This document shows positions 30,496 through 51,356 of a stretch of DNA of 54,128 nt, piece by piece; the first letter of the stretch is position 1; every line of letters begins with the position of its first letter. The stretch spans positions 1-54,128 of the forward strand of contig CAYOML010000006.1 in NCBI GenBank assembly GCA_964405095.1, read 5' to 3'. The position numbers and the translations under genes were made by a program. The notes below the pieces were generated by a model that saw nothing but the letters and a program-made list of their open reading frames with translations, was not told where the DNA came from and made no database searches. The DNA comes from an uncultured Candidatus Saccharibacteria bacterium. Lineage in GTDB: Bacteria > Patescibacteriota > Saccharimonadia > Saccharimonadales > EFPC-124.

Positions 30496-30610
30496 TTATC
30501 CACATCAGACAAGTACTTTTCCACATATTAACAGATTATGGGACCACGTGTGTACAACTCGCACACCTAACAGGTCCGTGAAAAGTTTGCTGATTAGAGG
30601 TTGTGGAAAA
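30496..30610. promoter_or_regulatory. DnaA-box cluster upstream of dnaA
   Basis: TTATCCACA at 30496-30504 (perfect consensus), TTTTCCACA at 30517-30525, TGTGGAAAA (inverted) at 30602-30610. The last overlaps a possible -35 (ttgtgg-18-tatgat, 30601-30630). Confidence 0.65.
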
Positions 30611-30656
30611 CCGGAAAACCGCGCTATGATGAAGGGTAGTTAGTCTCGAAAAGAAA

Positions 30657-33399: not shown

Positions 33400-34481
33400 T
33401 GTACACCTCGCTGCGTCTTCATAATTTCCGCTCCTACGCCGATTATGCCGCTGAGTTTGAGCCTGGCGTTAATATTATTGTTGGCCCCAATGGCAGCGGC
33501 AAGACTAACTTACTCGAGGCGCTCTACGCTATTTCGACCGGTGGGTCGTTCCGGGCTGCCGACCGCGAGTTAATACGTCATGGAACCAGTGGTTTTCGAC
33601 TGGAAGGCTGGTATGGCGACCAACAGCGGATTTTTTCTTATCAAACCCAAGAAGAAGCTGTCGAAAAACAGTTTAGCCTAGACGGCACAAAAAGGGCTCG
33701 TCTAACCCACGAACAGCAGGTACCGGTCGTGTTATTCGAACCCGACCATTTGCGCTTGCTGCGTGAGTCGCCCAGCATGCGCCGCGAATATCTAGACAGT
33801 TTGCTCAGCAGATTGCAACCCGATTTTGCCTGGTTAAAACATCAGTTTGAAAGAGTTTTAACCCAACGCAACGCCATGTTAAAACGTCGCCTACCACCTG
33901 CCCAGCTCGAGGACCAGTTGTTTGTCTGGGATATTAAGTTCGCTGAACTTGCCGAGCAGATCGTTGCCCGTCGCCGCGACCTCATTACCCACCTACAAGC
34001 CAGCCTGGCGGACGTTTACTCCACAATAGCCCATCAACCCCACCACGCCGCCATAACTTACCACAGCAGCGTTGCTGGCGATAATTACCATGCCAATCTT
34101 CTGCGATTATTGAGTTCGGGTCTGGCACGCGACGTTGAGCGCGGTTTTACCAGTGTTGGCCCGCAACGGGACGATTTTAGTATCGACCTGGATGACGCAC
34201 CGGCGGCCGTGGCGGCCTCACGCGGTGAGGTGCGAACATTATTATTGGCACTCAAGATTATAGAGTTGCGCTTGGTGGCCGCCCAACAAGACCTTGCCCC
34301 GCTGTTGCTGCTTGACGATGTGTTTAGTGAACTCGATACCTCTCGCCGCCAGGCCCTAGCCATACTAGCCAAAAGCTACCAAACTCTCATCACAACGACT
34401 GACGCCGATGCCATCATCGAGCACTTTTTAGATGGTTATCGAATCATCGCCACCGACAAGCCCGCAAGTAGCGGCCTATAA
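33399..34481 (+). CDS. recF: DNA replication and repair protein RecF
   Basis: LRLHNFRSY, Walker A GPNGSGKTNLLEA, LLLDDVFSELD. ATG 33399 shares one base with the dnaN TGA; the track ORF starts at TTG 33396. Confidence 0.9.
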   Translation: MYTSLRLHNFRSYADYAAEFEPGVNIIVGPNGSGKTNLLEALYAISTGGSFRAADRELIRHGTSGFRLEGWYGDQQRIFSYQTQEEAVEKQFSLDGTKRARLTHEQQVPVVLFEPDHLRLLRESPSMRREYLDSLLSRLQPDFAWLKHQFERVLTQRNAMLKRRLPPAQLEDQLFVWDIKFAELAEQIVARRRDLITHLQASLADVYSTIAHQPHHAAITYHSSVAGDNYHANLLRLLSSGLARDVERGFTSVGPQRDDFSIDLDDAPAAVAASRGEVRTLLLALKIIELRLVAAQQDLAPLLLLDDVFSELDTSRRQALAILAKSYQTLITTTDADAIIEHFLDGYRIIATDKPASSGL

Positions 34482-35129
34482 ACTGCTGGCTTCGGTCGGG
34501 TCGTACTCAACCTTGTAATCAGACAAGTTAATATTGTTTTGGCTGAGCCACTGTTTAGCTTCTTCTTTAAAGTCACGCAGTTGTTGGTTGTAAACGTCCG
34601 TGTTTGACTTGAGTGCATAGGGATAGAGAGTGATTTTGAAGCTTAGCGTACTGTCGGCACCAAGGCCATAGTCAACGCGGAAGTCCAGCGATTCATGCGG
34701 TAGCTGGTTGAGAATTGGGTATTTCTTATTCAATTCTTCTTGTTTAGCTACTGCATCGGCAGCTCCGGCTTTTTCGCGCAGCTCTTGTATCTCGGGGTGC
34801 GCCTCGAGGTACTTGAGGGCTGCCTCGGACTCTGGTCTGGGCATCATGTAGATGATCTGGTTCGATTTAAGATCGTTGGTATGAACAGTTTTAGTGACAT
34901 CGGCAAAATCGGTCCTGGCGACCTTAAGTTCATGGCTGCCGGTATTCAGAAAAATTCTTCCCGGGGCCGTCGGCTTCCCATCGATTGTCAGTGTCGAATC
35001 TTCCGGTATGAGCACAATTTTAACGGCGACTGTTCCAGGTGGTTGGTAGACAAATAGCAGCCACAAGACTAGAAGCACTAAGCCGATGCCACCGCCGATA
35101 ATGAGGGCTAGTTTTCGATTTCGACTCAT
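34476..35129 (-). CDS. Membrane-anchored protein with a PEGA-like beta domain; last gene of the T4SS-like operon
   Basis: N-terminal anchor LALIIGGGIGLVLLVLWLLFV, then VKIVLIPEDSTLTIDGKPTAPGRIFLNTGSHELKVARTDF (PEGA-like). Confidence 0.45.
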   Translation of the reverse strand: MSRNRKLALIIGGGIGLVLLVLWLLFVYQPPGTVAVKIVLIPEDSTLTIDGKPTAPGRIFLNTGSHELKVARTDFADVTKTVHTNDLKSNQIIYMMPRPESEAALKYLEAHPEIQELREKAGAADAVAKQEELNKKYPILNQLPHESLDFRVDYGLGADSTLSFKITLYPYALKSNTDVYNQQLRDFKEEAKQWLSQNNINLSDYKVEYDPTEASSL

Positions 35130-35151
35130 ACGCGTTCCCCTCGTAGTTTTA

Positions 35152-36444
35152 TCATTTCAACCTGTACCATGTCTCACCAATATCGTAGGCATTGCTGGCC
35201 ATTGGTGCCCGTTCTTCAAACGATGCCGAGGCAGAATTGCGGCTAAAGCCATCGTTGGCACCAACATACATGTAGGTGTGAGTCATGCCGGAGTTGATCC
35301 ATATATCTCCACCATGAAGGGTGTCTGTAGTCTTAACACCGGTAATCTTGATATACTTTCCAGCCTTTACCTGGTCCTCTAGGTATCGGTGCTGCTCTGT
35401 AACACGGCCCTGATACTTGTTGTATTCGGGGTCGGCCTTGCTATCCCGCATAACTCTTGTTACAAAGCCACCACAATCAACTCCCGGGTATGCGCCTCCG
35501 CCTATATATTCGCAGCCCGGAGTGCCTGTAGGGTAGCAACCAGGGGGATGCGCGGTATTGAGCGCTTGGGCATAGGCTGGTTTTAGGGCTCGGGCGTAAG
35601 TAGCATTGACATCCGGGTCGCGGTATTTTGGCCAGGAGTAGTTGATTGCTGTTTTGACAGCATCTCCGAGAACCGCGCTGCCTGTGCATAGGCCGGCAGC
35701 CGCGCCGCTGGTTGGTCCACCTAGTAGGACATAGATTGTGAAGGCACCAAAGCGTTTGTCTATCCCATCCAGACCGCCAAAGTCTTTGGTTATGATCTTC
35801 ATGTCGGTGTGGGCTGCATCGTAACGGCTCATGACATACGGCGAGCCTTCGTAAGGTTGTTTTACCGGGTCAAAGCCCAGGGAAGCAGCCTGATCGACGT
35901 AGACGCCCGCTCGCCCGTTGTAGCCAAACAAGGCGTCTTTAATAAGTTCGCTATCTATAGCTGCGGCGTTAATGTTCTTGCCGAATATGCCAGCCACAGC
36001 CTTAGATTGAAGTTCCTTACCGGCAATGATCACCGACTCTTCAAAGGTTGAAGGGTAGCCATATCTGGCATAACTGGTGGACGCTTGCTTATATGGCCCG
36101 CCGATCGGGTTACCGGCTTGCAAGTCCTTGGATGTATTCATGTTGCTTTCACGGTAGTGGATGCCGGCAAGCACCTCCCATGGCAGGTTGGTTTTACGCG
36201 CCGCCGACTCGTAAATCGACTTGTTCTTGTTTACGGCATCGATAAAGTCTTTTGGCAGTGACGCGTCGACGGTTCCGAGGGTACCGGCAGCGCATGTATC
36301 GCCAGGGATGTAATATGGTATGCCATTGCTGATGAGTTCTTCCAGGCCCTCGGCGTAAACAGGTATTATGGGTTGCAAACTCAAAACGAGAATTGACAGT
36401 ATTAAGACCGAGAACCGCCGTAAGTTTTTAAGGTTGTTTTTCAT
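35152..36444 (-). CDS. Secreted bifunctional cell-wall hydrolase (lysozyme/transglycosylase-like N-domain plus NlpC/P60- or CHAP-like C-domain), CwlT/PrgK-type
   Basis: Start set at ATG 36444 (MKNNLKNLRRFSVLILSILVLSL signal peptide). LPWEVLAGIHYRESNMN is a glycosidase-like Glu motif. VDCGGFVTRVM plus THTYMYVG is a Cys/His peptidase pattern. Overlaps the upstream gene by 17 nt. Confidence 0.55.
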   Translation of the reverse strand: MKNNLKNLRRFSVLILSILVLSLQPIIPVYAEGLEELISNGIPYYIPGDTCAAGTLGTVDASLPKDFIDAVNKNKSIYESAARKTNLPWEVLAGIHYRESNMNTSKDLQAGNPIGGPYKQASTSYARYGYPSTFEESVIIAGKELQSKAVAGIFGKNINAAAIDSELIKDALFGYNGRAGVYVDQAASLGFDPVKQPYEGSPYVMSRYDAAHTDMKIITKDFGGLDGIDKRFGAFTIYVLLGGPTSGAAAGLCTGSAVLGDAVKTAINYSWPKYRDPDVNATYARALKPAYAQALNTAHPPGCYPTGTPGCEYIGGGAYPGVDCGGFVTRVMRDSKADPEYNKYQGRVTEQHRYLEDQVKAGKYIKITGVKTTDTLHGGDIWINSGMTHTYMYVGANDGFSRNSASASFEERAPMASNAYDIGETWYRLK

Positions 36445-38983
36445 GACTACTACCTTCCGGATTATGGGTGTATCTGGCGTATAGCGCATCAACCGTCGAG
36501 AAGTCGGCGGTGCATATATTTGTCTGACCCGTCGGGGTAGTCTTACAATCGCCTGAGTCATCAAATAACTCTGGCGACAGAGGTGTTGTTTGCAGTGTCT
36601 GCAGAGGTATGCCCATGTGTTCGATCCCATCGATTGCCGAACTATCGGCACTGGCAGCCATTGCTGGTTGGGCGGCCATGGCTGCAATGCTCCTGGGGGT
36701 AGACCAAACTGCCGCGAATATCCCCTGAATGGCTGTGGCCAGATTGTCGCCAACACTAACAGCCACAGGTGATTTGAGTGCGGCGACGTTAATAAACGAA
36801 CCTGGTTGCATGCGATCGAACAAGCGTTTTTCGAGTGGTAAGTTAGCAACAGTGGCAGCGTTGCTACTTTGGCTGGCATATTTAAGCTCATTCTCCTGGG
36901 CCAGCGTGACTGGGCCACAGCCAAAGCGTGCACAGGCAAAGTTAGCCAGGGCATGGGCGCCAGTTCCCATACAGTTAAAGAAGTTAAAATTCTTTTCGGC
37001 GGGGTCGCAGATGGGCAGGAGTACTTTAGACGGTAACTTAAAGATGTTGTCGATATAGTCACCTAGCGCGGTGTTCTTAAGAGCGCCGAAAAACCTGGTA
37101 GAGAAAAAAGTAGCTAATGGTTGAGATGCGAAGACCATAATGACTGGTTCAGCAATCGAACGTATTTTGTACCATATTTCCATCGCCAATTTGAGTGGCG
37201 CAAATGCAATAAGCGACGCAAAGGATTTAAAGTAGGTTGACATTGGATTGGGCAACATACTGTTAACCTTCTCGTCCTCACCCATCGGCTTGCCGCGACT
37301 AGTATCGTCGTAGGCCACATAGTTGTAAGCCTGTGATTCTTCTATGTTGGCGTAGTTCCTAAAAATGAGCGAACTGCTTGGAGAGCTAGCGTCACCAGCA
37401 CCACTTTGGTTTACAGCGCTCAGGTTCCACAAGAAGAGTGCCCCAGCTTGTTTGCTGCGCAGGTCAGAAGTTACGTGGCTGTAAGCCGGGTCATCTTTCC
37501 CTTTGTAGATAGTCGTTGCCATGTCTAACCATCCAAGCATTACAATAGCTGGGCTGTTTTTAGAAAAGGCCTCGGTTATTTTTTGTCCTGCTGTGTCCCC
37601 TAGTTTTGATGTCGTGTAATTGTTCTCAGGCGTTATCGCCCCCATATTTTCATCGTAGGCTTTGTCGCTGGCGTTTTGGATCGACGATTCCGTTTTATCT
37701 TGGTATGCAGACTCGGCCGTCACACTGGCCGTCACGCTCGAATCTTGTGAGCAACCCTGGCCCGACAAGAAGCAGCTTAACGCCCAATGCAGACCATCAA
37801 TGCCAGGTCTCAGAATGGTCCCTATCTGTGATTTGACAACGTCGGTTAATTGCTCTGGTGACGTAGCATCCTCGGCACCAGGGATGGCCAGGCCCGGTAT
37901 ACTAAATGCTGCCTTGGCTGGCCGGCCAATTTGAGTGTGTTGCGCCCAATCCCATCCCCTCATCTCCTCATCCATTAGGCGTCTGAGGTCGGTGAATTTA
38001 TCGCGCAGAATCTTTTCGGCTTGAGCAGCATCATGGACTGTACCTAGGTCATTGCCGTTTTGCACAATTTGTACACCACCACCCGCACCGTTCGATCGGA
38101 ACTCCAAGCCAAAATTCTTTTTAATACGCTGCTCGAAACCATCTTTTTTCATGGCGTCGTAAAGTAATTTAAGTGACCCGTTTGTCACTGGGCCATCTGT
38201 GGTTACGCCCAGCACGTGCCCCGAGCTAGATTCGACTGCCGCCACATCCGCTGATTGGCCAGCGTCGCTAACTGCCGAGGCACCGCCGGTCACAAAACGC
38301 GACAATATAGATATGCCGCGGTTGTCGACAATCTGCTGAACTGGCGCCAGATACTTAGTGGCGGCCGAAAGGGTCGAAGCAATAGGTCGCAGGGCGTTTA
38401 AGAACAGCAATCCTCCAACTACAACGGTCAAAACACCAATAAAAGCTACGACTGCGACTTGGACTTTGTGTTTTAGAGCATAAGCTCCGACTAGAGCTAA
38501 CCCGGCTACTGCAGCACCAACGACAGCACCAGCACCGGCAGTTTCGGGGGCAGTTGCAGCACCCGCTGCGCCAGCCGCGCCAGCAATGCCAGTGGCACCG
38601 GCTGTGCCTGCGGCACCAGCTGCACCGGCTCCAGCTGCGCCAGCGGCGGCGGCACCTTCGGCACCAGCTGCTCCAGCTCCAGCCGCAGCTCCTGTGGCGC
38701 CTGTACCGGCTCCTGCTCCTAAGCCACTCTGAGCAGCTGATTCCCCGAGTTGCTGGCCGCCCCTTTTGGCACCTTCTCTAACCGCGCCTTTCGCGTGTTC
38801 CTTGGCTTTGCCTACGGCGTGCTCAACAGCCTGGTCCCTAAGAGTTTTTTCTGCTTCTTCTTGGGGCTTATGCTCAATCTCATGCTCGACTTCGTGTTCC
38901 ATTCCGTGCCCCGCATCAAAATGGGGGTGGGGATGTTCTTCTTGATCGCGCAAATGTTCTAAGGGGTCGTGTTGGTCAGGCAT
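36428..38983 (-). CDS. Large T4SS-associated membrane protein: His/Glu-rich N-terminus, Ala/Gly low-complexity tract, two TM helices, ~640-aa extracytoplasmic region
   Basis: 851 aa; HPHPHFDAGHGMEHEVEHEIEH; GAGAGTGATGAAAGAGAAGAEGAAAAGAAGAGAAGAAG...; TM segments AVVGAAVAGLALVGAYAL and VAVVAFIGVLTVVVGGLLFL. I recognise no family. Confidence 0.5.
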   Translation of the reverse strand: MPDQHDPLEHLRDQEEHPHPHFDAGHGMEHEVEHEIEHKPQEEAEKTLRDQAVEHAVGKAKEHAKGAVREGAKRGGQQLGESAAQSGLGAGAGTGATGAAAGAGAAGAEGAAAAGAAGAGAAGAAGTAGATGIAGAAGAAGAATAPETAGAGAVVGAAVAGLALVGAYALKHKVQVAVVAFIGVLTVVVGGLLFLNALRPIASTLSAATKYLAPVQQIVDNRGISILSRFVTGGASAVSDAGQSADVAAVESSSGHVLGVTTDGPVTNGSLKLLYDAMKKDGFEQRIKKNFGLEFRSNGAGGGVQIVQNGNDLGTVHDAAQAEKILRDKFTDLRRLMDEEMRGWDWAQHTQIGRPAKAAFSIPGLAIPGAEDATSPEQLTDVVKSQIGTILRPGIDGLHWALSCFLSGQGCSQDSSVTASVTAESAYQDKTESSIQNASDKAYDENMGAITPENNYTTSKLGDTAGQKITEAFSKNSPAIVMLGWLDMATTIYKGKDDPAYSHVTSDLRSKQAGALFLWNLSAVNQSGAGDASSPSSSLIFRNYANIEESQAYNYVAYDDTSRGKPMGEDEKVNSMLPNPMSTYFKSFASLIAFAPLKLAMEIWYKIRSIAEPVIMVFASQPLATFFSTRFFGALKNTALGDYIDNIFKLPSKVLLPICDPAEKNFNFFNCMGTGAHALANFACARFGCGPVTLAQENELKYASQSSNAATVANLPLEKRLFDRMQPGSFINVAALKSPVAVSVGDNLATAIQGIFAAVWSTPRSIAAMAAQPAMAASADSSAIDGIEHMGIPLQTLQTTPLSPELFDDSGDCKTTPTGQTNICTADFSTVDALYARYTHNPEGSSHEKQP

Positions 38984-38991
38984 AGTTTTCC

Positions 38992-40872
38992 CTAAGTTAT
39001 TGGCCCTTGCTCGTTAGTTTGCTGCTGGGAGTTAAAAAGCGTCTGTATTTGTTGTATCTGTTGGGGGTTGGTCGTGATAAGTGATGTCTCTGTAGGGCTG
39101 GCAATGACTTGGATGTGTACGTGATTAGAGCCAGCAAAAAACAATCCTTGGCCCACCGGGAACTGTGCCAGACGTTTTTTCTCCTCTTCGGTCAGTTTGA
39201 AAACGTCGGCTAGAACATCTACTGCCGAGGTAGATTGCTTAAGTAGCATCTGCATACTGGCGTTAGCCACAATCGCCCGCCCCATTTTGCTGCCCATAAA
39301 GTCTTCTACATCCTGAGTGATAGCCGTTAGTCCCAAGAAGTATTTGCGCGCCCGTTTGGCTAGGCTGAATAAAAAGTTGGCTGAATCATCATATTTCATA
39401 AGCTGCCATGCCTCGTCGACGATTAACAAGCGTTTTTTCTGTTCGCTGCGTGTCTTATTCCAAATATAGCTCAACACAATGTACATGGCTACAGGCCGCA
39501 GTTCGTCCTCGAGGTCGCGGATGCTAAACACCACCATCTTATTGTTTATGTTGACGTTAGATTGTTGGCTAAAGATGCCTGCAAAGGTGCCTGTTGTGTA
39601 TTTGCGCAGTCGCTGGGCTAGCTGCGGGCCGCTGCCACCCATGTGCAGCAAAGTCTCGTACAGGTCACCGATGGTTGGCGGCGGGCTGTTATGAGTTAAC
39701 GGGTCGCTGGTAATCCCGGCTCGGGCGTAGGTGTCGATTAAGGCTTGGTCGAGGTCGGCCTCTTCGGCTGGGTTGAGGGCCGGCAGTGACACGCCACCGG
39801 GCAGCATCTGAGCGCCACCCATCATTAGGCGCAGCAGCCCATGCAGAGTAATTAGGTTGGCACGCAAGGCGTCCTGGGCTTCGTCGTTTTCGATCACCCG
39901 TGGCAGATCAAAGGGGTTAATGCGGGTTGCGGAATTAAGACTGAGGGCAATGTAGGTGCCGCCAACTGCGTCGCATAACCGCTGATACTCGTTTTCTGGG
40001 TCTACAATAATAATTTCGGCGCCCATCATCATGCTGCGCATGGCTTCAAGTTTGACGGTAAACGATTTACCGGCACCAGATTTAGCAAAAACCACCATGT
40101 TGGCATTTTCTAGCGAGAACCGGTCGAATATTACCAGCCCGTTGTTGTGCATGTTAATGCCATACAAAACACCCTTCTCTTGCGTCAGATCGGCACTGGT
40201 AAATGGAAAACTGGTGCTCAGCGCGCCGGTGTTCATATTGTGCCTTATTTGCAACTGGTCACTGAGTTGTGGAATGGTGCTGTTTAGCCCCTGTTCCATC
40301 TGGCTGGAGGCGACTTTGCTGAACACTAACTGCTGCCCAAGAATAGTTTCGATCTTATGTTGTATAAATTGCAACTCGTCGAGGCTATCGGCATACATCG
40401 TAATATATAGGCCAAATCGGAAGAAACGTTCGGCGCCAACCTGCAACTTATCGCGCAGCTCCTCGGCATCCTGGATGGCAGCTTCCAACCCGGGGTCACG
40501 TACCTTACCCCGTTCGGAATTAATCGAGATGCTAGCCTCTAGCTGCCCGACTTTTTTACGCAGGTTATTGAGCACCACCTGGCTCTCAACCGGATAAATA
40601 AACATATTAACGTCGATGACTTCATCGATGTTAATAATTGGGCTCAGCCAACCAGTGTAAATCTGCCTTGGGTAGCCGTAAACGTACATTGTCCGGGCGT
40701 ACCTAGTACCAAGCCGGAAATAGCCAGCCTGAATTTCCAGCGAACTGGGCGCGATCACATCGCGCAGCGTGGTAATGCCCTTTAAGAACTCCTGCTCAAT
40801 CTCTTGCTGCTCACGCTGGCGCTGAGCCTGGGCTATATCAACCGGATCAACCTTTTTCTTGCCGAACGCCAT
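38992..40872 (-). CDS. virB4: VirB4-family T4SS ATPase (middle and ATPase domains)
   Basis: Walker A VVFAKSGAGKSFTVKLE, Walker B RLLIVDEAWQLM. The N-terminal part DVIAPSSLEIQAGYFRLGTRYARTMYVYGYPRQIYTGWL is typical of Gram-positive VirB4 homologs. Confidence 0.85.
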   Translation of the reverse strand: MAFGKKKVDPVDIAQAQRQREQQEIEQEFLKGITTLRDVIAPSSLEIQAGYFRLGTRYARTMYVYGYPRQIYTGWLSPIINIDEVIDVNMFIYPVESQVVLNNLRKKVGQLEASISINSERGKVRDPGLEAAIQDAEELRDKLQVGAERFFRFGLYITMYADSLDELQFIQHKIETILGQQLVFSKVASSQMEQGLNSTIPQLSDQLQIRHNMNTGALSTSFPFTSADLTQEKGVLYGINMHNNGLVIFDRFSLENANMVVFAKSGAGKSFTVKLEAMRSMMMGAEIIIVDPENEYQRLCDAVGGTYIALSLNSATRINPFDLPRVIENDEAQDALRANLITLHGLLRLMMGGAQMLPGGVSLPALNPAEEADLDQALIDTYARAGITSDPLTHNSPPPTIGDLYETLLHMGGSGPQLAQRLRKYTTGTFAGIFSQQSNVNINNKMVVFSIRDLEDELRPVAMYIVLSYIWNKTRSEQKKRLLIVDEAWQLMKYDDSANFLFSLAKRARKYFLGLTAITQDVEDFMGSKMGRAIVANASMQMLLKQSTSAVDVLADVFKLTEEEKKRLAQFPVGQGLFFAGSNHVHIQVIASPTETSLITTNPQQIQQIQTLFNSQQQTNEQGPIT

Positions 40873-40873
40873 G

Positions 40874-41812: not shown

Positions 41813-41845
41813 CCCCCTGGGTAGTGTGTGTTGTCTCAGGTGACC

Positions 41846-42754: not shown

Positions 42755-42872
42755 ATGGATAATTATAACCGGTATTGGTTATTTTGGCCTGCTTTTTAAG
42801 ATATGCACGAATTCGGTCACCCTCTTTTAGAGGACGTACCTCTACAGGTGTAAAAACGCGATAGTTTGAGTG

Positions 42873-43487: not shown

Positions 43488-43511
43488 GCGCGTACTCTAC
43501 TACAACTTGGC

Positions 43512-43594
43512 TCAAAGTAGAACTAACAAGAAATAACAGTGGTAGAGGTACGTCCTCTTTGTGACGCTCTTTGTGACGACGTCCTCTTAGCCCC
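43512..43594 (+). repeat. REP-like unit B (long form, with internal tandem ctctttgtgacg duplication)
   Basis: tcaaagtagaactaacaagaaataacagtggtagaggtacgtcctctttgtgacgctctttgtgacgacgtcctcttagcccc; hairpin agagg-tacgt-cctct. Confidence 0.75.
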
Positions 43595-43596
43595 TG

Positions 43597-43995
43597 CTAC
43601 GAGTTTTTGTTTAGGGTTAAAAATTCGCTTGGGTTTTTGCAGAAGCTCAAAAGGCTTGCTACGCCGAAGGCAACCTCTTGTCGGCCTTCTGCTAAACGCC
43701 GTTCCGTTTCCGCCTGATGAACATTGCGCTGTCGCCCACGACTTACGGAGTAATATCCAGTTAGCCGGCCGTCTGGGGCAGTAGCAACAATGGCTCCCAA
43801 AGAGGCATAACCCATATGATGTCTAATATTTTCTAGAGCACTCGGGTCCAGGGGAGGCACCGTCTCTACACGTTGCGATAAACTGACAAATTCATTACCG
43901 GTCTGCTCCGGTTCAAAAACTGTACATTCGTAACCACCCGTTTGCATCGGTTCACCTAATGTATACTCGCTCATTCCAAACTCCCTTAGTTTCAA
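43597..43995 (-). CDS. Hypothetical protein (ORFan, 132 aa)
   Basis: ORF with SD aagggag 7 nt upstream of the ATG and a near-consensus promoter upstream. I recognise no motif. Confidence 0.6.
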   Translation of the reverse strand: MKLREFGMSEYTLGEPMQTGGYECTVFEPEQTGNEFVSLSQRVETVPPLDPSALENIRHHMGYASLGAIVATAPDGRLTGYYSVSRGRQRNVHQAETERRLAEGRQEVAFGVASLLSFCKNPSEFLTLNKNS

Positions 43996-44001
43996 AGTTG
44001 T

Positions 44002-44030
44002 ATTATATCATACTAAGTCAATACTAACAA
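44002..44030 (-). promoter_or_regulatory. Near-consensus promoter TTGTTA-17-(TGa)TATAAT for the 132-aa gene
   Basis: The minus strand reads cttgttagtattgacttagtatgatataat. TATAAT is the complement of 44002-44007, the extended -10 TG is present, and TTGTTA is the complement of 44025-44030. Confidence 0.45.
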
Positions 44031-44040
44031 GCTCGGACGT

Positions 44041-44135
44041 TGGTGGTAGAGGTACGTCCTCTTTGTGCTCCAAACTAGAACTGACAAGGAATAACACTGG
44101 TAGAGGTACGTCCTTTGTGGTCTTTGTGGTCCCCT
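44041..44135 (+). repeat. REP-like units C (short, 44041-44068) and D (long, 44069-44135)
   Basis: tagaggtacgtcctct at 44047-44062 and tagaggtacgtcct at 44101-44114. Unit D (ccaaactagaactgacaaggaataacactggtagaggtacgtcctttgtggtctttgtgg) aligns along ~55 nt with unit B, with few mismatches. Confidence 0.75.
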
Positions 44136-44722
44136 TATACGCCAAAGTAGTTGTCGCCCTCCCACCAGTGCCTCTTTCGGAATCGCCTTGCGTCTCGTTT
44201 TTGGATTCGTCTCGTTATTGCTGCGTAGTCCAGCACGTCAGGCAACGACCATGATGGATGCCTGTCGGGGCTCTGACCGAGCTTGAGGACTCTTTCTGTA
44301 GCCTGCACAAGGTAGGCATGGTCAATTATCTCAACCCGGCCTTCGAGGCCATAAAAACTCATACCCTCTTCATAGAGGCCCCAATTAGAATAAGTGAACA
44401 GTTCGCCATCTTCACGAACTAAGATACCCGGTATCGGGACCGGCTGAGGGTACTCTCCGCCAGTCGCTCCCGTACTTGTGGGTATGATTACCCAGCCAGC
44501 GCCACAACGCCTGTAAAGGCCGGAACTCTGGACTTCCTCGTACAGAGGGACAAGCGGTACATTGTGCCGTTCAATCAACCCCAAAAACTCTTGTACTTCA
44601 GCACGTGTTCGTGCCTTCTGGGCGGCATACAGCAAGGCTTCTTCAGCTAGCTTTTGTTGATAGGCCTCCTCAGTTGCCTCTTGCTGTCTAATACCCTCCC
44701 GGGCTTCATCTTCGAGACTCAT
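44135..44722 (-). CDS. Hypothetical protein (ORFan, 195 aa; acidic coiled-coil-like N-terminus)
   Basis: ORF with SD aaggag upstream of the ATG. I recognise no motif. Confidence 0.55.
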   Translation of the reverse strand: MSLEDEAREGIRQQEATEEAYQQKLAEEALLYAAQKARTRAEVQEFLGLIERHNVPLVPLYEEVQSSGLYRRCGAGWVIIPTSTGATGGEYPQPVPIPGILVREDGELFTYSNWGLYEEGMSFYGLEGRVEIIDHAYLVQATERVLKLGQSPDRHPSWSLPDVLDYAAITRRIQKRDARRFRKRHWWEGDNYFGV

Positions 44723-44896
44723 ATATAACGCTCCTTACAATGCTGGGTGGTGCTTTCGGTAGCAATCATATTATGGCATGATTCGTAGCTATGCGAAAGT
44801 CCGGAGTAGGTATTTACATATGTTAGAGTCGTTGTAAAATAACCATGTCAACCGAATTTCGGTGGATGTGGCAATGCGTATGTTAGGGAGGAGACC

Positions 44897-45031
44897 GTGA
44901 GCGATGGCCGAAAAGCCATTTTGGCGGTGGTGAAGGTAGTAACCATCGTCTGGGGAGTAGCAGCCATAATTGCGCTGATACTCTGCTGTTGTGGCGTCAG
45001 GTTTCTTGGCGTCGATGTCCCGAGCAACTAA
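44897..45031 (+). CDS. Candidate small hydrophobic peptide gene (44 codons), below the ORF-track length cutoff
   Basis: SD gggaggag (44886-44893), GTG at 44897, product (M)SDGRKAILAVVKVVTIVWGVAAIIALILCCCGVRFLGVDVPSN, TAA at 45029-45031. Possible promoter tttaca-16-taaaat at 44813-44840; strong hairpin 9 nt downstream. Confidence 0.3.
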   Translation: MSDGRKAILAVVKVVTIVWGVAAIIALILCCCGVRFLGVDVPSN

Positions 45032-45040
45032 CATTGTCGC

Positions 45041-45093
45041 GTGGCGGCAAGCAGGCCTGGGGCACCTCCGCCCCTTCGCCTGCTTGCCGCCAC
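45041..45093 (+). terminator. Strong stem-loop (15-bp perfect stem) downstream of the small ORF; possible terminator or RNA structure
   Basis: gtggcggcaagcagg (45041-45055) pairs with cctgcttgccgccac (45079-45093). The loop contains a further ggggc/gcccc pair. There is no immediate T-run (atcctaaatgtttt follows). Confidence 0.35.
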
Positions 45094-45155
45094 ATCCTAA
45101 ATGTTTTAAAAGAGCGGATCGATAAGGCCTCTCGAAAGTCTTGTCTACGCATTTG

Positions 45156-47639
45156 TTAACCACGAGACCTGATTCTGTCGACCTCCGCCCTGAATCCTGG
45201 TGCTATCTTCTCTGCCTCTTCCACGACAAACAATAATTCATCGCGGTGCTTGATCTTTGGATTGCGCAATGCCTGGCCAATTTTGGTGGCAGTTAGATCG
45301 CGTATGCTAGGATCTCCGGCATCTTCAAGTAGAGCCTTACCAAGAAAACCTAGCCCCGATACCTTGTTGGGGTCTGACGGATCCTTATATTCACCAAGCT
45401 GGCCCTTTTCCATTGCCTCGATCGTTATACTCCCAATAACCGAACGGGCTGCAGCTGTCTCTGTGGCGGTAGTGGCAGGTTTGCCTCCAAGCTTAATGGC
45501 AACAGGACTAAATTTACCAGCGGGGTCTAAGCCTGCATAACCTAGCCCCTGGAAGCCATTGGCTTTGGCGCTTTTTGCAACAGTTTCTATCATTACGTTG
45601 TTTGCGGCGAATACAGAGCCCTTCTCTTCCCTGAGTGCTTCAGCTGTAGCCCTCGTAGCTTCCATAACCTGGTCGTAATCCGATCCAGAGGCGTGTGCAG
45701 CCATCAACGCCGACATTCTAAAATCCGCAGTACCTATTCGGGTGCCAAACCTCGATTGAAGACTTTCCATTTCCTTTCTCTGTTCCTGGGAAAATCCGTA
45801 TGCTGGATTACCAGATGCATCTTTATGTCTTACCTTGGAGGCACCGCCGTTCTCGACCTCGGCGCGCTTAATATAGTCATCAATGCTCTCTCCAGCATTC
45901 ATGCGTGATAAGTGTGCCGACAAGGGCGAGCCACCCAAGCGTCCAATCGCAGTCGCTGTTGTTCCTAATTGGCTCTCTCGCAACTTTTCAGCTGCGGACA
46001 GGGTCTGCTCGGTTATGGCACCTCGTGCACCCTTAGGCAGGAAGCGAGAGCCACCTCTCAGTAATCTTGCCTGTACTCCCTTACCTTCAAGAAATCGTTT
46101 CTGTCTATATTGTTCCCAACCACCTTTAAGGGCTTGGCCAGCTTTACTGTTGACGGCTCGTTTCTTGGCGAACTGACCTGTTCTATTCCTGTAATCCTGT
46201 GCCTTGGAATACACCTGGTGCATGGCGCCACCTGCCAACTTAAAGGCAAACGGTATAGCTAGCAAAGGCAGCAAGAAGGCCATGAAGCTGATCAATGCAA
46301 TCACAAAGTCGGATACTCCTGCGCTTTCGCCAGCCACACTCCCAACCTGAGATAATACCGAACTGGCAATTTTACCGGCTGCGAACAGCAACACGATAAT
46401 GGGGTACATGGCTAACAGGCGTATGAACATTTCACCCCACTTGCGGAAGAGGCTTTGCGTGTTTGGCAGTAGCCCTGCAACAAAAGCCAGGGGGGCCACA
46501 ATAAACAAGAAGATAAGGAAAACCTGCCGAACAATAAGTGTTGCTGCGGCTATCAGCACAACTATTAGAGCAAAGATAAAGAACACAAAGACGCCAAATA
46601 TGATCCCCGGGGCCAGAGCTGCTATACCCAGTGCCATACCTCCGTTCGCAAACAGGTTCGCAGTGCTTATTGCGCTGAGGTCTATACTCGGTTGTCCATT
46701 CAGCACTGTAGATATTACTAGCGAAGCTGCCCCTGCACCCAGAACATTGAATATGTCTACCAGGATTGCACAGATAAAGAACGATAGATTGGTAGCGACT
46801 GCCACTATAATCAGACGCGGTAATAAGCGTTTTATGCCGTAGTTAGTAATACCTGCCGAGGTGGCTTGCGAGAAGATAATCACAAAGAACACTAAAATGA
46901 AGGCAATATTGGCTATGTTCCTTACGTTGTTCCAAACAGTGTAAAGAATAGTCTCTTGACCACTAGCATCGGTGACGGTCAGAGGGTTAACGCTCAGGAA
47001 AGGCTTTATGAGGTGCTCGAAGATAAAGTCTAGCGCGCCAAATAGGACCTCGAGTGTTGGGCACACAATCCAGGTCATTATTATGCCCTTGCCAGAACAA
47101 TCGATAACCGGCGTGCCGTCTTTGCCTACTTGGTTGGCAGTACCAAGCACACGTTCGGTGCTGGCATCGCTGCCGTCCAGATAAGTTATCGTATTATTAG
47201 TGACGACAACATTGGCATATGTCTTGGTTGCCGAGTAATAAGTGTCGCCGAGGTCGGTTTTTGAACAGAATGCACTAAGAAGGGGTGTCTTGTTAATGAT
47301 AGAAGTGAACCAGTTTTTTTTGCAGCCTTCACTGGTAAACTTGAAGTCCAACTTAATGGTATATGTCCCCGGTTTGACGTTGCTAAGAACAACTTTGCCG
47401 CCACTTACAGATATATTCACACCCCCCGGATCGGGCGAAATTGTGACCTTAGTATTGTCACCTTCCGCCGTAATCTTGGTGCCTTCAACCTCAACAACGT
47501 ACTTACCACCCTGGATCTCGCCGGTAGTTGCTGAAGGCGCGGCGAATGCCGGATGGGCCAATAAAAACAGGCCGGCAATAACCAGTAAACCGCCAGCAAA
47601 CCATGCCCATACCCGTTTTAGACCCACGAAAGTAAGCAT
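45156..47639 (-). CDS. VirB6/TrbL/PrgH-like polytopic T4SS channel protein with an N-terminal secreted beta domain and a ~350-aa hydrophilic C-terminal region
   Basis: 827 aa; signal peptide WAWFAGGLLVIAGLFLLAHPAFA; ~7-8 hydrophobic helices across residues ~190-470; position upstream of the PrgI-like and VirB4 genes. Family call rests on topology and synteny. Confidence 0.5.
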   Translation of the reverse strand: MLTFVGLKRVWAWFAGGLLVIAGLFLLAHPAFAAPSATTGEIQGGKYVVEVEGTKITAEGDNTKVTISPDPGGVNISVSGGKVVLSNVKPGTYTIKLDFKFTSEGCKKNWFTSIINKTPLLSAFCSKTDLGDTYYSATKTYANVVVTNNTITYLDGSDASTERVLGTANQVGKDGTPVIDCSGKGIIMTWIVCPTLEVLFGALDFIFEHLIKPFLSVNPLTVTDASGQETILYTVWNNVRNIANIAFILVFFVIIFSQATSAGITNYGIKRLLPRLIIVAVATNLSFFICAILVDIFNVLGAGAASLVISTVLNGQPSIDLSAISTANLFANGGMALGIAALAPGIIFGVFVFFIFALIVVLIAAATLIVRQVFLIFLFIVAPLAFVAGLLPNTQSLFRKWGEMFIRLLAMYPIIVLLFAAGKIASSVLSQVGSVAGESAGVSDFVIALISFMAFLLPLLAIPFAFKLAGGAMHQVYSKAQDYRNRTGQFAKKRAVNSKAGQALKGGWEQYRQKRFLEGKGVQARLLRGGSRFLPKGARGAITEQTLSAAEKLRESQLGTTATAIGRLGGSPLSAHLSRMNAGESIDDYIKRAEVENGGASKVRHKDASGNPAYGFSQEQRKEMESLQSRFGTRIGTADFRMSALMAAHASGSDYDQVMEATRATAEALREEKGSVFAANNVMIETVAKSAKANGFQGLGYAGLDPAGKFSPVAIKLGGKPATTATETAAARSVIGSITIEAMEKGQLGEYKDPSDPNKVSGLGFLGKALLEDAGDPSIRDLTATKIGQALRNPKIKHRDELLFVVEEAEKIAPGFRAEVDRIRSRG

Positions 47640-47689
47640 TACCTACAATATTACAGCATACCGGAGTCCGAGACTATATTTAGCCCGAG

Positions 47690-48772
47690 CTATTTAGGGT
47701 CGCCGGTGATCATGCCAAAGCCCCAGGGGCCCAATACTCGCACGTCGTCGGATGTTTTTTCTAACGGGACAATACGCAACGGACCCCTTGTTGCACTCGT
47801 ATTTTGCCTTTGGTCATCTATCATGGCGTTCACCTTGTAGTATCTATATCTGAGGGTATAGGTTCTTGGTGTATCACCCATTTCATCTGTCACCTGTACG
47901 CTGATCTCCCACACATCCGGGCTGATCTGTTTAACTTGGCTCGTACCCTCCACAGGTTTTATAAACCTGGGTTGCTCCCCACTCCATGAATCAAAAGACT
48001 GACCATCAGCCACTGGATGGTTTTTCGCAAGCCTTTCGACTTGGGCGTATGTTGCTGAGTTCTTGGATAATGATGCCCCACAAAGAGCTTTAAATAAGGG
48101 CTCATCCAAGTGCCCGGCGTTTGATAGCAAATAAGCCGCCTGTTGGATACACATCTCGTAGGTGTGAGCCTTCCCCTCAACAGTGCCGGCAATACTATCT
48201 GGATCGTTTATACCTCTTAAAAGCTCATATAAAGGATCAGTAGAACCCTCTGGGATTTTCAGACTGGAGTTAAAAAAGCTGAGCGGCATTGCATCTGCCT
48301 GTAAACCAACAAAGCTTACAAAATCATCTTCAGGGTAGAAGGCCATCCATGCTGCTTGGTCGGCCGGTGACAATCGATTGATCTGCTCAACCGACATCGC
48401 ACGCAATTTCACTAACTCTGATTCCTGTTGTGAGGGTGTTGCCTCGATAAAGGCGGCCACAATGTTGCCGTTGGCACCAACATTTACCTCTCCTGGTGCG
48501 ACTGCTACCCGCCCATCACCTGCACCTGTAGGAGTGTTACCCGGGCCACAGCCTGCCACTGCCAGTGCTGTCGACAGGCTAAGACCTGACGCCATCAAGG
48601 CCAGAACCCGTGCTACCCTGCTGTCGCGCAGTCTTTCGGCTAGACTTGGCCTCACCTCGTTGTTTGTGTTAAACTCAAATTCGCGACTTTCGGCTGGGCC
48701 GAGAGTGGACGGGTCTACTATTCCTACACTCTCACCAGTCGGATTTGCTGACATAATGCCTGGCATATCCAT
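47690..48772 (-). CDS. Putative lipoprotein, first gene of the T4SS-like operon
   Basis: Lipobox-like LSTALAVAGCGPGN about 70 aa into the ORF; the true start is probably downstream of 48772. Confidence 0.5.
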   Translation of the reverse strand: MDMPGIMSANPTGESVGIVDPSTLGPAESREFEFNTNNEVRPSLAERLRDSRVARVLALMASGLSLSTALAVAGCGPGNTPTGAGDGRVAVAPGEVNVGANGNIVAAFIEATPSQQESELVKLRAMSVEQINRLSPADQAAWMAFYPEDDFVSFVGLQADAMPLSFFNSSLKIPEGSTDPLYELLRGINDPDSIAGTVEGKAHTYEMCIQQAAYLLSNAGHLDEPLFKALCGASLSKNSATYAQVERLAKNHPVADGQSFDSWSGEQPRFIKPVEGTSQVKQISPDVWEISVQVTDEMGDTPRTYTLRYRYYKVNAMIDDQRQNTSATRGPLRIVPLEKTSDDVRVLGPWGFGMITGDPK

Positions 48773-48946
48773 CCTCCTTGTTAATTACCTTCTATCGCAA
48801 TCTATTGCAGCTCTATTGGTAATAATACGATAAATACGACAAAAGTTGAAAATAGTTACATAACGCCTACACACCTTTTATAAAGGTTTACCTTGTAGCC
48901 GGGGCGTGGTATAACCAAAGCAGGGTTATATCGAGAAACAAATACC

Positions 48947-49384
48947 GTGCAAGTACAAACTTCATTAAACAAACTATCATCCCTGCTGTGGGGCATGGTT
49001 CTTGCTGCCGTTATTATCTTTTTTGCATCTTATCCGGCATCTGCTGCCACTGGCGGCGCCAACTGCACTATAGGTGGTCAGCCAGGTGTGCAAGTATCGG
49101 TAGGTGTAGAAGGTTCAAAATGTATACCTCTGGGGGCTACACCCGACACCAACCCCATAATTGTTTTTATGAAGGACTTACTTAAAGTGATAAGTGGATT
49201 GGTCGGGTTAGCCACGGTCGGCGGTATTATCTGGGGCGGTATGCTGTATGTGACTGCTCGGGCTAATGCCGGCCAAGTCGAAAAAGCCAAAATTGTAATT
49301 ATTAATTCGATAATAGGCCTAGTATTATTTATTTTTATGTTTGCAATACTGCAATTCTTAATACCAGGAGGGATATTTTCGTGA
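48947..49384 (+). CDS. VirB2/TrbC-like T4SS pilin paralog 1
   Basis: Signal peptide, Cys pair (ANCTIGG...GSKCIP), two-TM hairpin GLATVGGIIWGGMLYVTARANAGQVEKAKIVIINSIIGLVLFIF. GTG start. Confidence 0.65.
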   Translation: MQVQTSLNKLSSLLWGMVLAAVIIFFASYPASAATGGANCTIGGQPGVQVSVGVEGSKCIPLGATPDTNPIIVFMKDLLKVISGLVGLATVGGIIWGGMLYVTARANAGQVEKAKIVIINSIIGLVLFIFMFAILQFLIPGGIFS

Positions 49385-49803
49385 TGAAACGCTGGTTTGC
49401 AATATTGGGAGTAGGACTGCTGCTAGCCGTATCCCAGGGTCTGCCAGCGGCGGCAAAGCCATATGAGGGTGATGGGGATAGGTCATGCCGCAGTAGTTTT
49501 GGCCAATTCTTGGGCTTTAACTCCTGGGATTCGTGTTTGTACCATGCTTCCAGCGGCGCCCCAATTCTTAAGGGTATAGCCGACATCTGGTATATAGCCA
49601 TAGTGGTGATAGATGACTTCCTTAAGGCTGGAGTTTACGCTTCTATCGGCTTTATTATCTGGGGCGGCGTGAAGTATCTTAAAAGTCAGGGCGATCCTGG
49701 CGAGACAACTCAGGCCCGCCAGATTATCCACAATGCCCTTTTTGGTCTGGTGATTACTATTATTTCTGTTGCGATTGTTAACTTTGTAGCGAGTACATTC
49801 TAA
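49381..49803 (+). CDS. VirB2/TrbC-like T4SS pilin paralog 2
   Basis: Signal peptide, Cys pair (RSCRSS...WDSCLY), IGFIIWGGVKYLKSQGDPGETTQARQIIHNALFGLVITII. 4-nt ATGA overlap with paralog 1. Confidence 0.65.
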   Translation: MMKRWFAILGVGLLLAVSQGLPAAAKPYEGDGDRSCRSSFGQFLGFNSWDSCLYHASSGAPILKGIADIWYIAIVVIDDFLKAGVYASIGFIIWGGVKYLKSQGDPGETTQARQIIHNALFGLVITIISVAIVNFVASTF

Positions 49804-49804
49804 T

Positions 49805-50116
49805 ATGTTGAAAGATTTATTAAGCAACCTAGCCGCGCCCATAAATGTAGCACCAAATGATATTGGTATACCCCAAGTGCCACTCGATAATTCAGCGCTA
49901 GCCAATGCTTTGAGTGCGGTCTTTATGCTGCTTGGTGGAATGGCAGTCTTGTTTATGCTGGTTGGAGCCGTGCGTTACATAACTAGTGCGGGTGACCCAA
50001 AGAACATCAAAACGGCCAAAGACACGATTTTATATGCGCTCGTTGGTCTCGTAATTTCCATGTCGGCTTTCACCGTAGTACAATTTACGTTAGGTAAACT
50101 TGGCGGCAGTATATGA
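49805..50116 (+). CDS. VirB2/TrbC-like pilin paralog 3 (no signal peptide, no Cys pair)
   Basis: MAVLFMLVGAVRYITSAGDPKNIKTAKDTILYALVGLVISM core only. Confidence 0.6.
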   Translation: MLKDLLSNLAAPINVAPNDIGIPQVPLDNSALANALSAVFMLLGGMAVLFMLVGAVRYITSAGDPKNIKTAKDTILYALVGLVISMSAFTVVQFTLGKLGGSI

Positions 50117-50484
50117 TAAAAAAAATCGCGGCAGTAGTTGTGGCAGTAGTTATTATGGCTTTGGGTGTTGTCTCTCAGGCGCAGGCCGTTGATATTTTCC
50201 CAAAATGCGCAACTAATGACCCAGGGTCAACAGTCTGCACTGCCACTCAAGATAAGTTACTTGGCCCGGGTAGTTTGTGGAACAGAATCCTCGAGACATT
50301 CACGTTTATTATTGGCGCCGTGTCTGTACTGATGATTATTATTGGCGGCATTCGCTATGTAACGTCCGGAGGTGACCAAGCCAATATTAAGGCTGCCAAA
50401 GATACGATTCTCTACGCTGTAGTTGGTGTTGTTGTAGCTATGCTTGCTTACTCTATTGTTCACTTTGTAATATCTACCATATGA
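50113..50484 (+). CDS. VirB2/TrbC-like T4SS pilin paralog 4
   Basis: Signal peptide ...VSQAQA, Cys pair (PKCATNDPGSTVCTA), IIGGIRYVTSGGDQANIKAAKDTILYAVVGVVVA. Confidence 0.75.
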   Translation: MIKKIAAVVVAVVIMALGVVSQAQAVDIFPKCATNDPGSTVCTATQDKLLGPGSLWNRILETFTFIIGAVSVLMIIIGGIRYVTSGGDQANIKAAKDTILYAVVGVVVAMLAYSIVHFVISTI

Positions 50485-50882
50485 ACACACAACGAATAGC
50501 CTTACTGGTCGCGAATCTGGTGGTTGCCCTAGGCCTGGTTGCCGCTGTTGTGACGCCTGTAGCCGTCCAAGCTGCTGATCCCGCAACATCTAAAGCACTC
50601 TGCGAAGGCTCAGGCGGCACGTGGAACGGCAGTGCATGTACTAAGGCCGGTGAAGAATCGATACCAAGTGTATTTGGCACGATTACCAATGTTTTGTTAT
50701 TTGTGATTGGGGCAGTTAGCGTTATTGTTATCATCATTGGTGCTATCCGCTATGTGACATCGGGCGGTGAGCAGGCCAATATTAAGGCCGCAAAAGACAC
50801 GATATTATATGCAATCATCGGTCTTGTAGTAGCCTTCCTGGCATATGCTGTCGTCAACTTTGTAACGACACAGTTTAAGTAA
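50481..50882 (+). CDS. VirB2/TrbC-like T4SS pilin paralog 5
   Basis: Signal peptide ...VAVQAA, Cys pair (ALCEGSGGTWNGSACT), IIGAIRYVTSGGEQANIKAAKDTILYAIIGLVVA. Confidence 0.75.
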   Translation: MNTQRIALLVANLVVALGLVAAVVTPVAVQAADPATSKALCEGSGGTWNGSACTKAGEESIPSVFGTITNVLLFVIGAVSVIVIIIGAIRYVTSGGEQANIKAAKDTILYAIIGLVVAFLAYAVVNFVTTQFK

Positions 50883-50939
50883 GTCTATGCAAACACCGTC
50901 TGAGTGGTACAATAAAAAGCATAAGGAGAATAACTTAAG

Positions 50940-51356
50940 ATGAAATCATTCATGAGCGCAGTTACCAGAGCGTTGGCGATACCTCTGCTGACATTGAGCT
51001 TGGGTCTAGCTATGCCAGCTGCGACCTACGCCGTAGATTGCACAACCAATAACCCAGACATTACTACTGGCCCGAGCGGCGGCGCAGCTTGTGCTAAGCC
51101 AGCTAGCGGCGCTACAGATCTATTTGGCCCTGGCGGTATCTTTATTACGATTACCAACATCCTGCTGTTCGTGATTGGTGCCATTGCTGTGATCATGTTG
51201 ATCGTCGGCGGTATTCGTTACGTCATCTCATCGGGCGACCAAACGGCAGTTACCAATGCTAAAAACACGATTCTTTACGCGATCATTGGTATTGTGGTGG
51301 CCTTCCTGGCCTTTGCCGCAGTCAACTTCCTGACCGGGCAGCTGACTCCTAAGTAG
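50940..51356 (+). CDS. VirB2/TrbC-like T4SS pilin paralog 6
   Basis: Own SD (aaggag), signal peptide ...PAATYA, Cys pair (VDCTTNN...GAACAK), IVGGIRYVISSGDQTAVTNAKNTILYAIIGIVVA. Confidence 0.75.
   Translation: MKSFMSAVTRALAIPLLTLSLGLAMPAATYAVDCTTNNPDITTGPSGGAACAKPASGATDLFGPGGIFITITNILLFVIGAIAVIMLIVGGIRYVISSGDQTAVTNAKNTILYAIIGIVVAFLAFAAVNFLTGQLTPK

Follow-up and report, generated by a model that had tools for sequence, protein, structure and literature searches.

The 54,128-bp window analysed here, which is an entire contig on record (CAYOML010000006.1) of an uncultured Candidatus Saccharibacteria bacterium, carries between positions 34476 and 51356 a minus-strand operon that faces a plus-strand array of six pilin genes. 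Judging by profile matches and synteny, this locus is almost certainly the conserved chromosomal type IV secretion system (T4SS) of the Saccharibacteria, a member of the Patescibacteria clade descended from MPF_FATA systems and the counterpart of genes SEML1_0005-0019 of Southlakia epibionticum ML1. We hold with high confidence that this is the best explanation of the locus as a whole. The system, its lack of a relaxase, its proximity to dnaA and its pilin array have all been published already (PMC10633639; PMC12102498); the copy in the window is no new kind and is ordinary except for its small inserted mobile element, and the novelty implied by a preliminary description of this DNA, made from the letters alone, is not supported. 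The Saccharibacterial T4SS is among the small set of machines known as essential to the epibiotic lifestyle of bacteria from the CPR (candidate phyla radiation), which makes the system as such important. The use of the window copy is comparative, as it sets invariant parts against fast-changing ones, bears on pilin orthology and holds a mobile element within the operon, and can thereby guide work in cultivable relatives.

In ML1, dnaA, dnaN and recF on the plus strand are followed by the minus-strand genes SEML1_0004-0013, among them 0005 (PEGA; PEGA/Ig-like by structure), 0006 (lysozyme-like plus cysteine proteinase), 0007 (C-terminal DD-peptidase), 0008 (VirB4), 0009, 0010 (PrgI), 0011 and 0013 (both VirB6-like) and 0012 (NTF2-like); six pilin genes, 0014-0019, come next, and then hsp20 (SEML1_0020), comF and tRNA-Ser (Wang et al., 2023; PMC10633639). 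Transposon sequencing showed nearly all genes of the cluster to be essential to ML1, a cultured species, when it grows on host bacteria, including the six pilins and SEML1_0020, and the authors remarked that the system resembles Gram-positive conjugative T4SSs, that essential pilins are unusual and that coupling and relaxase proteins are missing (PMC10633639). The window shares with ML1 the same gene order, with dnaA-dnaN-recF on one flank and hsp20-comF-tRNA-Ser on the other, and the same parts, namely PEGA protein, hydrolase, large envelope protein, VirB4, TrsD-like protein, PrgI, VirB6 and six pilins; neither cluster contains a relaxase or a type IV coupling protein (T4CP). The two differ in that ML1 has two VirB6-like genes around the NTF2-like lipoprotein, whereas the window has a single VirB6-like gene, and in that SEML1_0004 has no equivalent in the window. 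In addition, the 851-aa protein of the window is without the C-terminal DD-peptidase domain of SEML1_0007, its hydrolase has a different N-domain, and the window alone carries a 2.4-kb insertion with a gene like those of REP-associated tyrosine transposases (RAYT) and hairpins like repetitive extragenic palindromes (REP). On a wider scale, Quinonero-Coronel et al. (2025) placed the Patescibacteria VirB4 clade as sister to MPF_FATA, reported TrsD as its commonest partner and PrgI and VirB6 besides, described VirB2 arrays of 2-11 genes averaging 25% identity, and noted a proximity to dnaA that they suggested may raise expression by gene dosage (PMC12102498).

All open reading frames (ORFs) that the preliminary description had placed in the cluster are present at those positions. 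From the first gene of the operon (48772) to its end (34476), and then along the array and the flanks, the features are the following:

47690-48772, minus strand: lipoprotein of 360 aa with lipobox LAVAG-C, first gene of the minus-strand operon
45156-47639, minus strand: extended VirB6/TrbL-like polytopic protein of 827 aa (PF04610)
42755-45155, minus strand: RAYT-like Y1/HUH insertion of 2.4 kb, lineage-specific
41846-42754, minus strand: PrgI/VirB3-like membrane protein of 302 aa (PF12666)
40874-41812, minus strand: TrsD-like ORF of 312 aa, equivalent to a VirB4 N-terminal domain as a separate gene
38992-40872, minus strand: VirB4-family ATPase of 626 aa, Gram-positive CD1110 type by profile matches
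36428-38983, minus strand: membrane-anchored protein of 851 aa, corresponding by position and synteny to SEML1_0007
35152-36444, minus strand: secreted cell-wall hydrolase of 430 aa, with a weakly NlpC/P60-like C-domain and a "HYRE" N-domain
34476-35129, minus strand: PEGA-like protein of 217 aa, last gene of the operon and positional orthologue of SEML1_0005
48947-49384, plus strand: pilin 1, VirB2-like, 145 aa (PF18895, E 2e-8)
49381-49803, plus strand: pilin 2, 140 aa (PF18895, 25.0 bits)
49805-50116, plus strand: pilin 3, 103 aa (PF18895, E 1e-11)
50113-50484, plus strand: pilin 4, 123 aa (PF18895, E 9e-13; TrbC, E 4e-4)
50481-50882, plus strand: pilin 5, 133 aa (PF18895, E 2e-10)
50940-51356, plus strand: pilin 6, 138 aa (PF18895, E 3e-10)
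51423-51899, minus strand: hsp20 (PF00011, E 1e-19), adjoining the pilin array
30496-34481, plus strand: origin context, a DnaA-box cluster and then dnaA, dnaN and recF (box matches and Pfam)

Pfam matches were read against the gathering scores (GA) of the families, which are 27 for PF12666, 25.9 for PF04610, 26.6 for PF18895, 20.8 for PEGA, 23 for NlpC/P60 and 23 for Y1_Tnp. The 626-aa VirB4 protein matches P-loop_TraG (E 1e-30), AAA_10 (E 4e-12) and also DUF87 in Pfam, has kept both Walker A (SGAGKS) and Walker B (LLIVDE) intact, and reaches 359 bits with the NCBIfam equivalog conju_CD1110 (NF045971), above the cut-off of 325, which links it to the Gram-positive MPF_FATA systems of the C. 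difficile CTn CD1110 type. The ORF spans positions 180-734 only of the CD1110 model. Upstream of virB4, and ending 1 nt from its start, the 312-aa ORF matches TrsD (NCBIfam, E 1e-7; 31.8 bits, under the curated cut-off of 200) as well as the N-terminal region of VirB4_plasma (E 2e-5, profile positions 100-253 of the full-length VirB4 model), and on the closest metagenomic contig its homologue is entered under PF26593 TraC-like. Since the VirB4 ORF is without the N-terminus of the model and the 312-aa ORF matches that very part, the initial view of the latter as a VirB4 N-domain encoded on its own holds.

The two membrane components next to virB4 score above the GA of their families. The 302-aa protein scores 51.9 bits with PrgI PF12666 (E 1e-13), and has a transmembrane (TM) hairpin at residues 24-68 followed by a long Pro/Ala-rich C-terminal extension. 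With TrbL/VirB6 PF04610, the 827-aa protein scores 26.8 bits over residues 245-455, just above the GA, and it gives a weak NCBIfam match to the CD3337/EF1877 mobilome membrane family (E 3e-6). Its plan comprises a signal or TM helix, an exposed N-domain of ~170 aa, a TM bundle at 185-473 and a hydrophilic C-domain of ~350 aa. The window has VirB6 as one fused protein, as do most species, but several relatives have two overlapping ORFs in its place, with the break right behind the TM bundle; these measure 435 and 497 aa in one relative (L001, 4293-7093) and 439 and 440 aa on the closest contig, from JGI. This could be due either to gene fission or fusion, or to recurrent frameshifts in metagenome-assembled genomes (MAGs). 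From prgI to the PEGA gene, intergenic gaps range from -17 to 33 nt, which fits a single translationally coupled operon. Profile searches and ORF coordinates together uphold the Gram-positive-type order VirB6-PrgI-VirB4-hydrolase that had been proposed for the locus.

Opposite the operon, the six tandem T4SS_pilin ORFs (48947-51356, plus strand) agree with the facing array of divergent VirB2-like pilins described initially. Five of them exceed the PF18895 GA and pilin 2 falls just short with its 25.0 bits, while pilins 2-6 share 22-28% identity with pilin 1. Pilins 1, 2, 4, 5 and 6 combine a signal peptide with a variable segment that contains Cys and with a hairpin of two helices. The loop of the hairpin has the motif G-G-I-R-Y-V-T-S-x-G-D, which stands out best in pilins 3-6. 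According to the TM map, pilin 3 is without an N-terminal signal peptide; its length of 103 aa recurs in ML1 (SEML1_0016, 312 bp) and on the closest contig, and it may be inserted or processed unlike the other five. When the array was compared with ten six-gene arrays from other species, the pilin at the same position was the best match in 47 of 60 comparisons, positions 1, 2 and 3 being distinct and 4-6 nearer each other. By this measure the six pilins are position-specific orthologues across species, which speaks for non-redundant pilins and for a fixed heteromeric assembly over variable cassettes. As for the presence of pilins in a monoderm T4SS, a December 2025 preprint describes VirB2-like PrgF pili in most Gram-positive T4SSs, so that such pilins are no oddity in themselves.

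A small heat-shock gene, hsp20, stands next to the pilin array in all 14 of the loci with enough flank (14/14), and it is highly conserved (93% over the part present in L001). It is conceivable that its product serves as a chaperone for the T4SS or the pilins.

Conservation of the locus was assessed with relatives of its VirB4. These comprise 80 loci, each from the genome of another GTDB species, with 80-93% identity over the best aligned segment, and nearly all are titled as Saccharibacteria or Saccharimonadales MAGs. Dozens of Saccharimonadales species, and the closest metagenomic contig as well, have the order comF-hsp20-pilins-lipoprotein-VirB6-PrgI-TrsD-VirB4-large protein-hydrolase-PEGA-recF-dnaN-dnaA. 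VirB4 identity was higher than that of DnaA and DnaN in 52 of 52 loci (medians of 83%, 68% and 61%, respectively), a contrast somewhat inflated by the choice of the compared loci for their VirB4 similarity. VirB4 and TrsD are the nearly invariant parts, as opposed to the fast-changing lipoprotein, PEGA protein, hydrolase N-domain and C-terminal peptidase of the large protein. Pfam scans of the sizeable ORFs of the 54-kb contig detected no relaxase, VirD4/TcpA coupling protein or integrase, in line with the absence of a VirD4-type ATPase, relaxase and integrase that the preliminary description had reported for the window. Direct, att-like repeats flanking the cluster, which would have pointed to an integrative and conjugative element (ICE), were looked for around it and none was found. 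Order and flanks are the same across Saccharimonadales species and ML1; as had been proposed, the locus is fixed in the chromosome and no ICE.

The mobile feature of the locus lies between virB6 and prgI. The segment 42755-45155, which had been marked as an insertion from the start, is indeed one: most species have 0-90 bp between the stop of VirB6 and the start of prgI, and neither the 80 loci nor the closest contig contain a homologue of any inserted ORF. It contains a gene for a 204-aa Y1/HUH transposase-like protein (42873-43487) and two orphan ORFs (43597-43995 and 44135-44722). The former matches Y1_Tnp with 41.4 bits (E 2e-10), shows HFH and YIHLNP motifs, and matches REP_Tyr_transpos NF047646 with 39.3 bits (E 6e-10), under the cut-off of 80. 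A palindrome-containing REP-like motif, GTAGAGGTACGTCCT, is present in 4 copies against 0.05 expected by chance. All four are inside the insertion; two of them, inverted, bracket the transposase gene, and two more are found at 44046-44116. No copies of the motif were seen in the relatives examined. In metagenomes, the 21-mer gave no match, and the 15-mer gave single matches per stretch only, as chance predicts at the size of the collection. Judging by these contents, the lineage-specific insertion would hold a RAYT-like gene with REP-like hairpins; it is a selfish passenger and stands outside the parts of the machine. Searches of PHROGs and PADLOC with the insertion ORFs and with the components of the locus that have no family returned nothing beyond low-complexity matches. 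At 45041-45093, ~60-115 bp downstream of the virB6 stop, there is also an inverted repeat, perfect over 16 bp and with 21 nt in its loop, that may be a terminator or the end of the inserted element. This hairpin falls within a doubtful 124-aa ORF (44789-45163).

The envelope and surface proteins are less conserved, and their assignment is correspondingly weaker. For the hydrolase, the true start is the ATG at 36444 (430 aa), followed by a signal peptide and preceded by a GGAAGG ribosome-binding site, and a longer overlapping ORF was rejected. Its C-domain matches NlpC/P60 with 16.5 bits only (E 8.5e-3), under the GA; a weak match of this kind is also given by 4 of the 5 orthologues tested, and the sequence shows a Cys motif (VDCGGF) and a His motif (HTYMYVG). 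The N-domain bears an invariant HYRE motif and has no Pfam family, and searches of the PDB by sequence and by profile gave spurious matches only. This N-domain varies by lineage: among the window, L001, L002, L061, L044 and L075 we found the HYRE type, a PF18013 type and at least one other, the phage-tail-lysozyme domain PF18013 occupying the N-position in some lineages, and hhalign detected no similarity of the window type to the N-domains that other lineages have at this position. Thus, of the "bifunctional wall hydrolase" announced initially, the wall hydrolase is a putative assignment in view of the weak NlpC/P60 match of its C-domain, and "bifunctional" follows from position only, as the N-domain is without a family. 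The PEGA-like protein is a similar case. PF08308 gives 18.4 bits (E 2e-3), which is below the GA, and the initial name is backed by this match and by the PEGA annotation of the positional orthologue in ML1. The protein has an N-terminal TM helix (residues 4-36), and its orthologues in 14 loci are 23-38% identical.

The 851-aa protein consists of an acidic N-terminus, an Ala/Gly-rich tract (low-complexity, encoded at ~38536-38694, ahead of the TM anchor), a TM region at ~147-205 and a large domain in which an alignment of eight sequences shows eight invariant cysteines. Four of seven homologues go on into a further, peptidase-like domain at the C-terminus, marked by an HxxGxAxDxD motif; the window copy is without this domain. 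No Pfam or NCBIfam family matched the protein, and AlphaFold2 modelling from the eight-sequence alignment gave a mean pLDDT of 39, too poor for a fold search. The lipoprotein was more elusive still. A single clear homologue was found among 5.8 billion clusters, with single-sequence and profile search alike, and an exhaustive HMMER search of 1.84 billion representatives gave only 4 matches; its AlphaFold2 model, built from 2 sequences, reached a pLDDT of 38 and was likewise too poor for a fold search. In L001, the positional orthologue is ~22% identical over 100 aa, while VirB4 there is 92% identical. By these comparisons the lipoprotein is a fast-evolving near-orphan at a conserved position, and the rate contrast within the operon is extreme.

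The composition of the locus can be compared with several known systems. In the prgH-prgL region of pCF10 the order is VirB6 (PrgH), VirB3 (PrgI), VirB4 (PrgJ) and a PrgK-like hydrolase. The window shares this VirB6-VirB3-VirB4-hydrolase order, and its TrsD is as in pGO1. The window locus differs from MPF_FATA conjugation systems in that relaxase, T4CP, oriT and adhesin are missing, that it is fixed in the chromosome instead of mobile, and that six pilin paralogues stand in place of one; in ML1, moreover, the locus is essential for growth. H. pylori ComB and archaeal Ced resemble the window in having VirB2-like, VirB3, VirB4 (as sole ATPase) and VirB6 proteins and no relaxase or T4CP. This likeness is one of composition and functional resemblance only: the window locus shows a partial similarity to CedB and is no member of Ced at the sequence level (47.8 bits against a cut-off of 700 for CedB, 28.4 against 600 for CedD), and ComB is a diderm system with VirB7-10. 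Bartonella Trw, also without a T4CP and with multiple tandem pilin genes, is diderm too, and its pilin copies are recent amplifications thought to serve variable adhesion, in contrast to the old, position-orthologous paralogues of the window.

Based on these comparisons, VirB6, PrgI, TrsD and VirB4 would form a membrane translocon. The hydrolase and the 851-aa protein would open the wall and line the passage, as a split analogue of PrgK, according to what is generally known of pCF10. Six non-redundant pilins, powered by VirB4 alone, would assemble into a heteromeric tube or stalk extending to the host bacterium. A non-conjugative job, as proposed in the preliminary description, is supported, and the same inference had already been drawn in the literature (PMC10633639; PMC12102498). 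For the nature of that job, we lean tentatively, and with somewhat less than even confidence, towards a conduit that imports host-derived macromolecules, most plausibly nucleic acids. Import is favoured because the part list without T4CP and relaxase matches that of the ComB uptake system; because the T4CP homologue of ML1, which lies far from virB4, is non-essential; because comEC is dispensable in ML1, yet nucleotides must come from outside; and because a 2026 preprint on another Patescibacterium links possible T4SS pili at the host interface to the acquisition of host RNA. A more detailed version of this proposal, in which the six ancient, position-fixed pilins build one heteromeric tube that imports host RNA or DNA driven by VirB4, and the lipoprotein and the swapped hydrolase N-domain act as host-specificity determinants, is speculative and perhaps one chance among several.

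Other explanations were considered. As the main alternative, the system may instead be an exporter that works without a coupling protein and brings toxins, lytic enzymes, effectors that modulate the host or other proteins to the host surface or interior, and this is a possible reading, if on the unlikely side. Exporters without a T4CP do exist, as in Bordetella Ptl and Brucella VirB; Wang et al. (2023) suggested a role other than DNA transfer, such as protein export (PMC10633639); a 2024 perspective notes speculation on effector delivery; and the locus itself encodes secreted wall-active enzymes. However, no effector candidate or secretion signal is known, the Ptl-type route needs an outer-membrane or periplasmic assembly step that is inapplicable to a monoderm, and the minimal part list fits import equally; the content of the window does not discriminate direction. 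It is distinctly improbable, in turn, that the locus is an attachment organelle only, which still makes pili but has lost translocation, a course proposed for Bartonella Trw, with the multiple pilins serving breadth of host range or surface variation. Trw-like precedents with amplified pilin genes have been cited for the Patescibacteria, and evolution is very fast in the surface components, namely lipoprotein, PEGA protein and hydrolase N-domain; but the pilins are ancient position-specific orthologues and not recent amplified variants, the essentiality of all six in ML1 favours a fixed heteromeric structure, and adhesion in Saccharibacteria is already credited to type IV pili.

The remaining explanation concerns the locus and not its role: it could be an ordinary ICE whose relaxase, T4CP and integrase lie beyond the contig or, in a variant, one in which the HUH (Y1) enzyme of the insertion replaces the relaxase and the accompanying hairpins replace oriT. 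The contig does end at a tRNA-Ser gene, a classic ICE target, and HUH enzymes are related to relaxases, one of them being present inside the locus with hairpin repeats. Against this, synteny with replication and housekeeping genes, the tRNA-Ser included, is kept in ML1 as well as across species, conservation is higher for VirB4 than for DnaA, unlike that of genes of mobile elements, and the RAYT insertion is absent from every relative examined. Moreover, relaxases are very few in Patescibacteria and seldom near virB4 (PMC12102498). An ICE is exceedingly improbable on these grounds, and this reading was rejected in view of the conserved synteny, the lack of repeats and the lack of DNA-processing genes on the contig.

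Several points weigh against our interpretation of the locus as a conserved T4SS with an import role. No VirB8-like component was identified at the locus, and a T4CP homologue may be present elsewhere in the genome, as in ML1. The choice of loci by VirB4 similarity inflates the contrast with DnaA, and both the hydrolase and the PEGA assignments score under curated thresholds. The failed models of the 851-aa protein and the lipoprotein leave the wall-spanning part resting on position and on the published ML1 annotation. The insertion parts the lipoprotein and virB6 genes from prgI and the genes downstream of it, so expression as one operon is assumed here. Finally, the 2024 perspective calls the role of the Saccharibacteria T4SS "completely unknown".

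Regarding the genomic context, three DnaA-box matches at 30496-30610, directly upstream of dnaA and including one perfect box, TTATCCACA, probably mark oriC. With these boxes just upstream of dnaA, ~4 kb separate the likely origin from the operon end. A further perfect box within pilin gene 2 (49724-49732) is probably a chance match. The 3' ends of the convergent recF and of the last T4SS gene share 6 bp (34476-34481), which leaves no room for separate terminators. A scan for promoters and terminators gave counts no higher than in shuffled controls. Pfam upheld the identities of the flanking dnaA-dnaN-recF, hsp20 and comF genes. The contig ends 2.8 kb past the pilin array, at the tRNA-Ser gene, which alone was matched in an Rfam scan of the window. 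The T4SS region has a GC content of 0.50-0.54, slightly above its flanks, a difference that we did not treat as evidence of transfer.

The other 30 sizeable presumed genes of the window are, by Pfam, a polysaccharide cluster of glycosyltransferases and ABC transporters, jag-yidC-rnpA, dnaA-dnaN-recF, and hsp20 with comF, 4 ORFs being without a Pfam match. The polysaccharide cluster is large (230-28136) and lower in GC (0.44-0.48). One of its ORFs, of 617 aa (8826-10679), has no Pfam match, and another encodes an 832-aa Ig/fn3-like protein (11299-13797). The cluster also contains many GT1/GT2/GT4 glycosyltransferases, sugar epimerases and dehydratases, and methyltransferases, together with an ABC exporter of the Wzm/Wzt type at 22111-24122.

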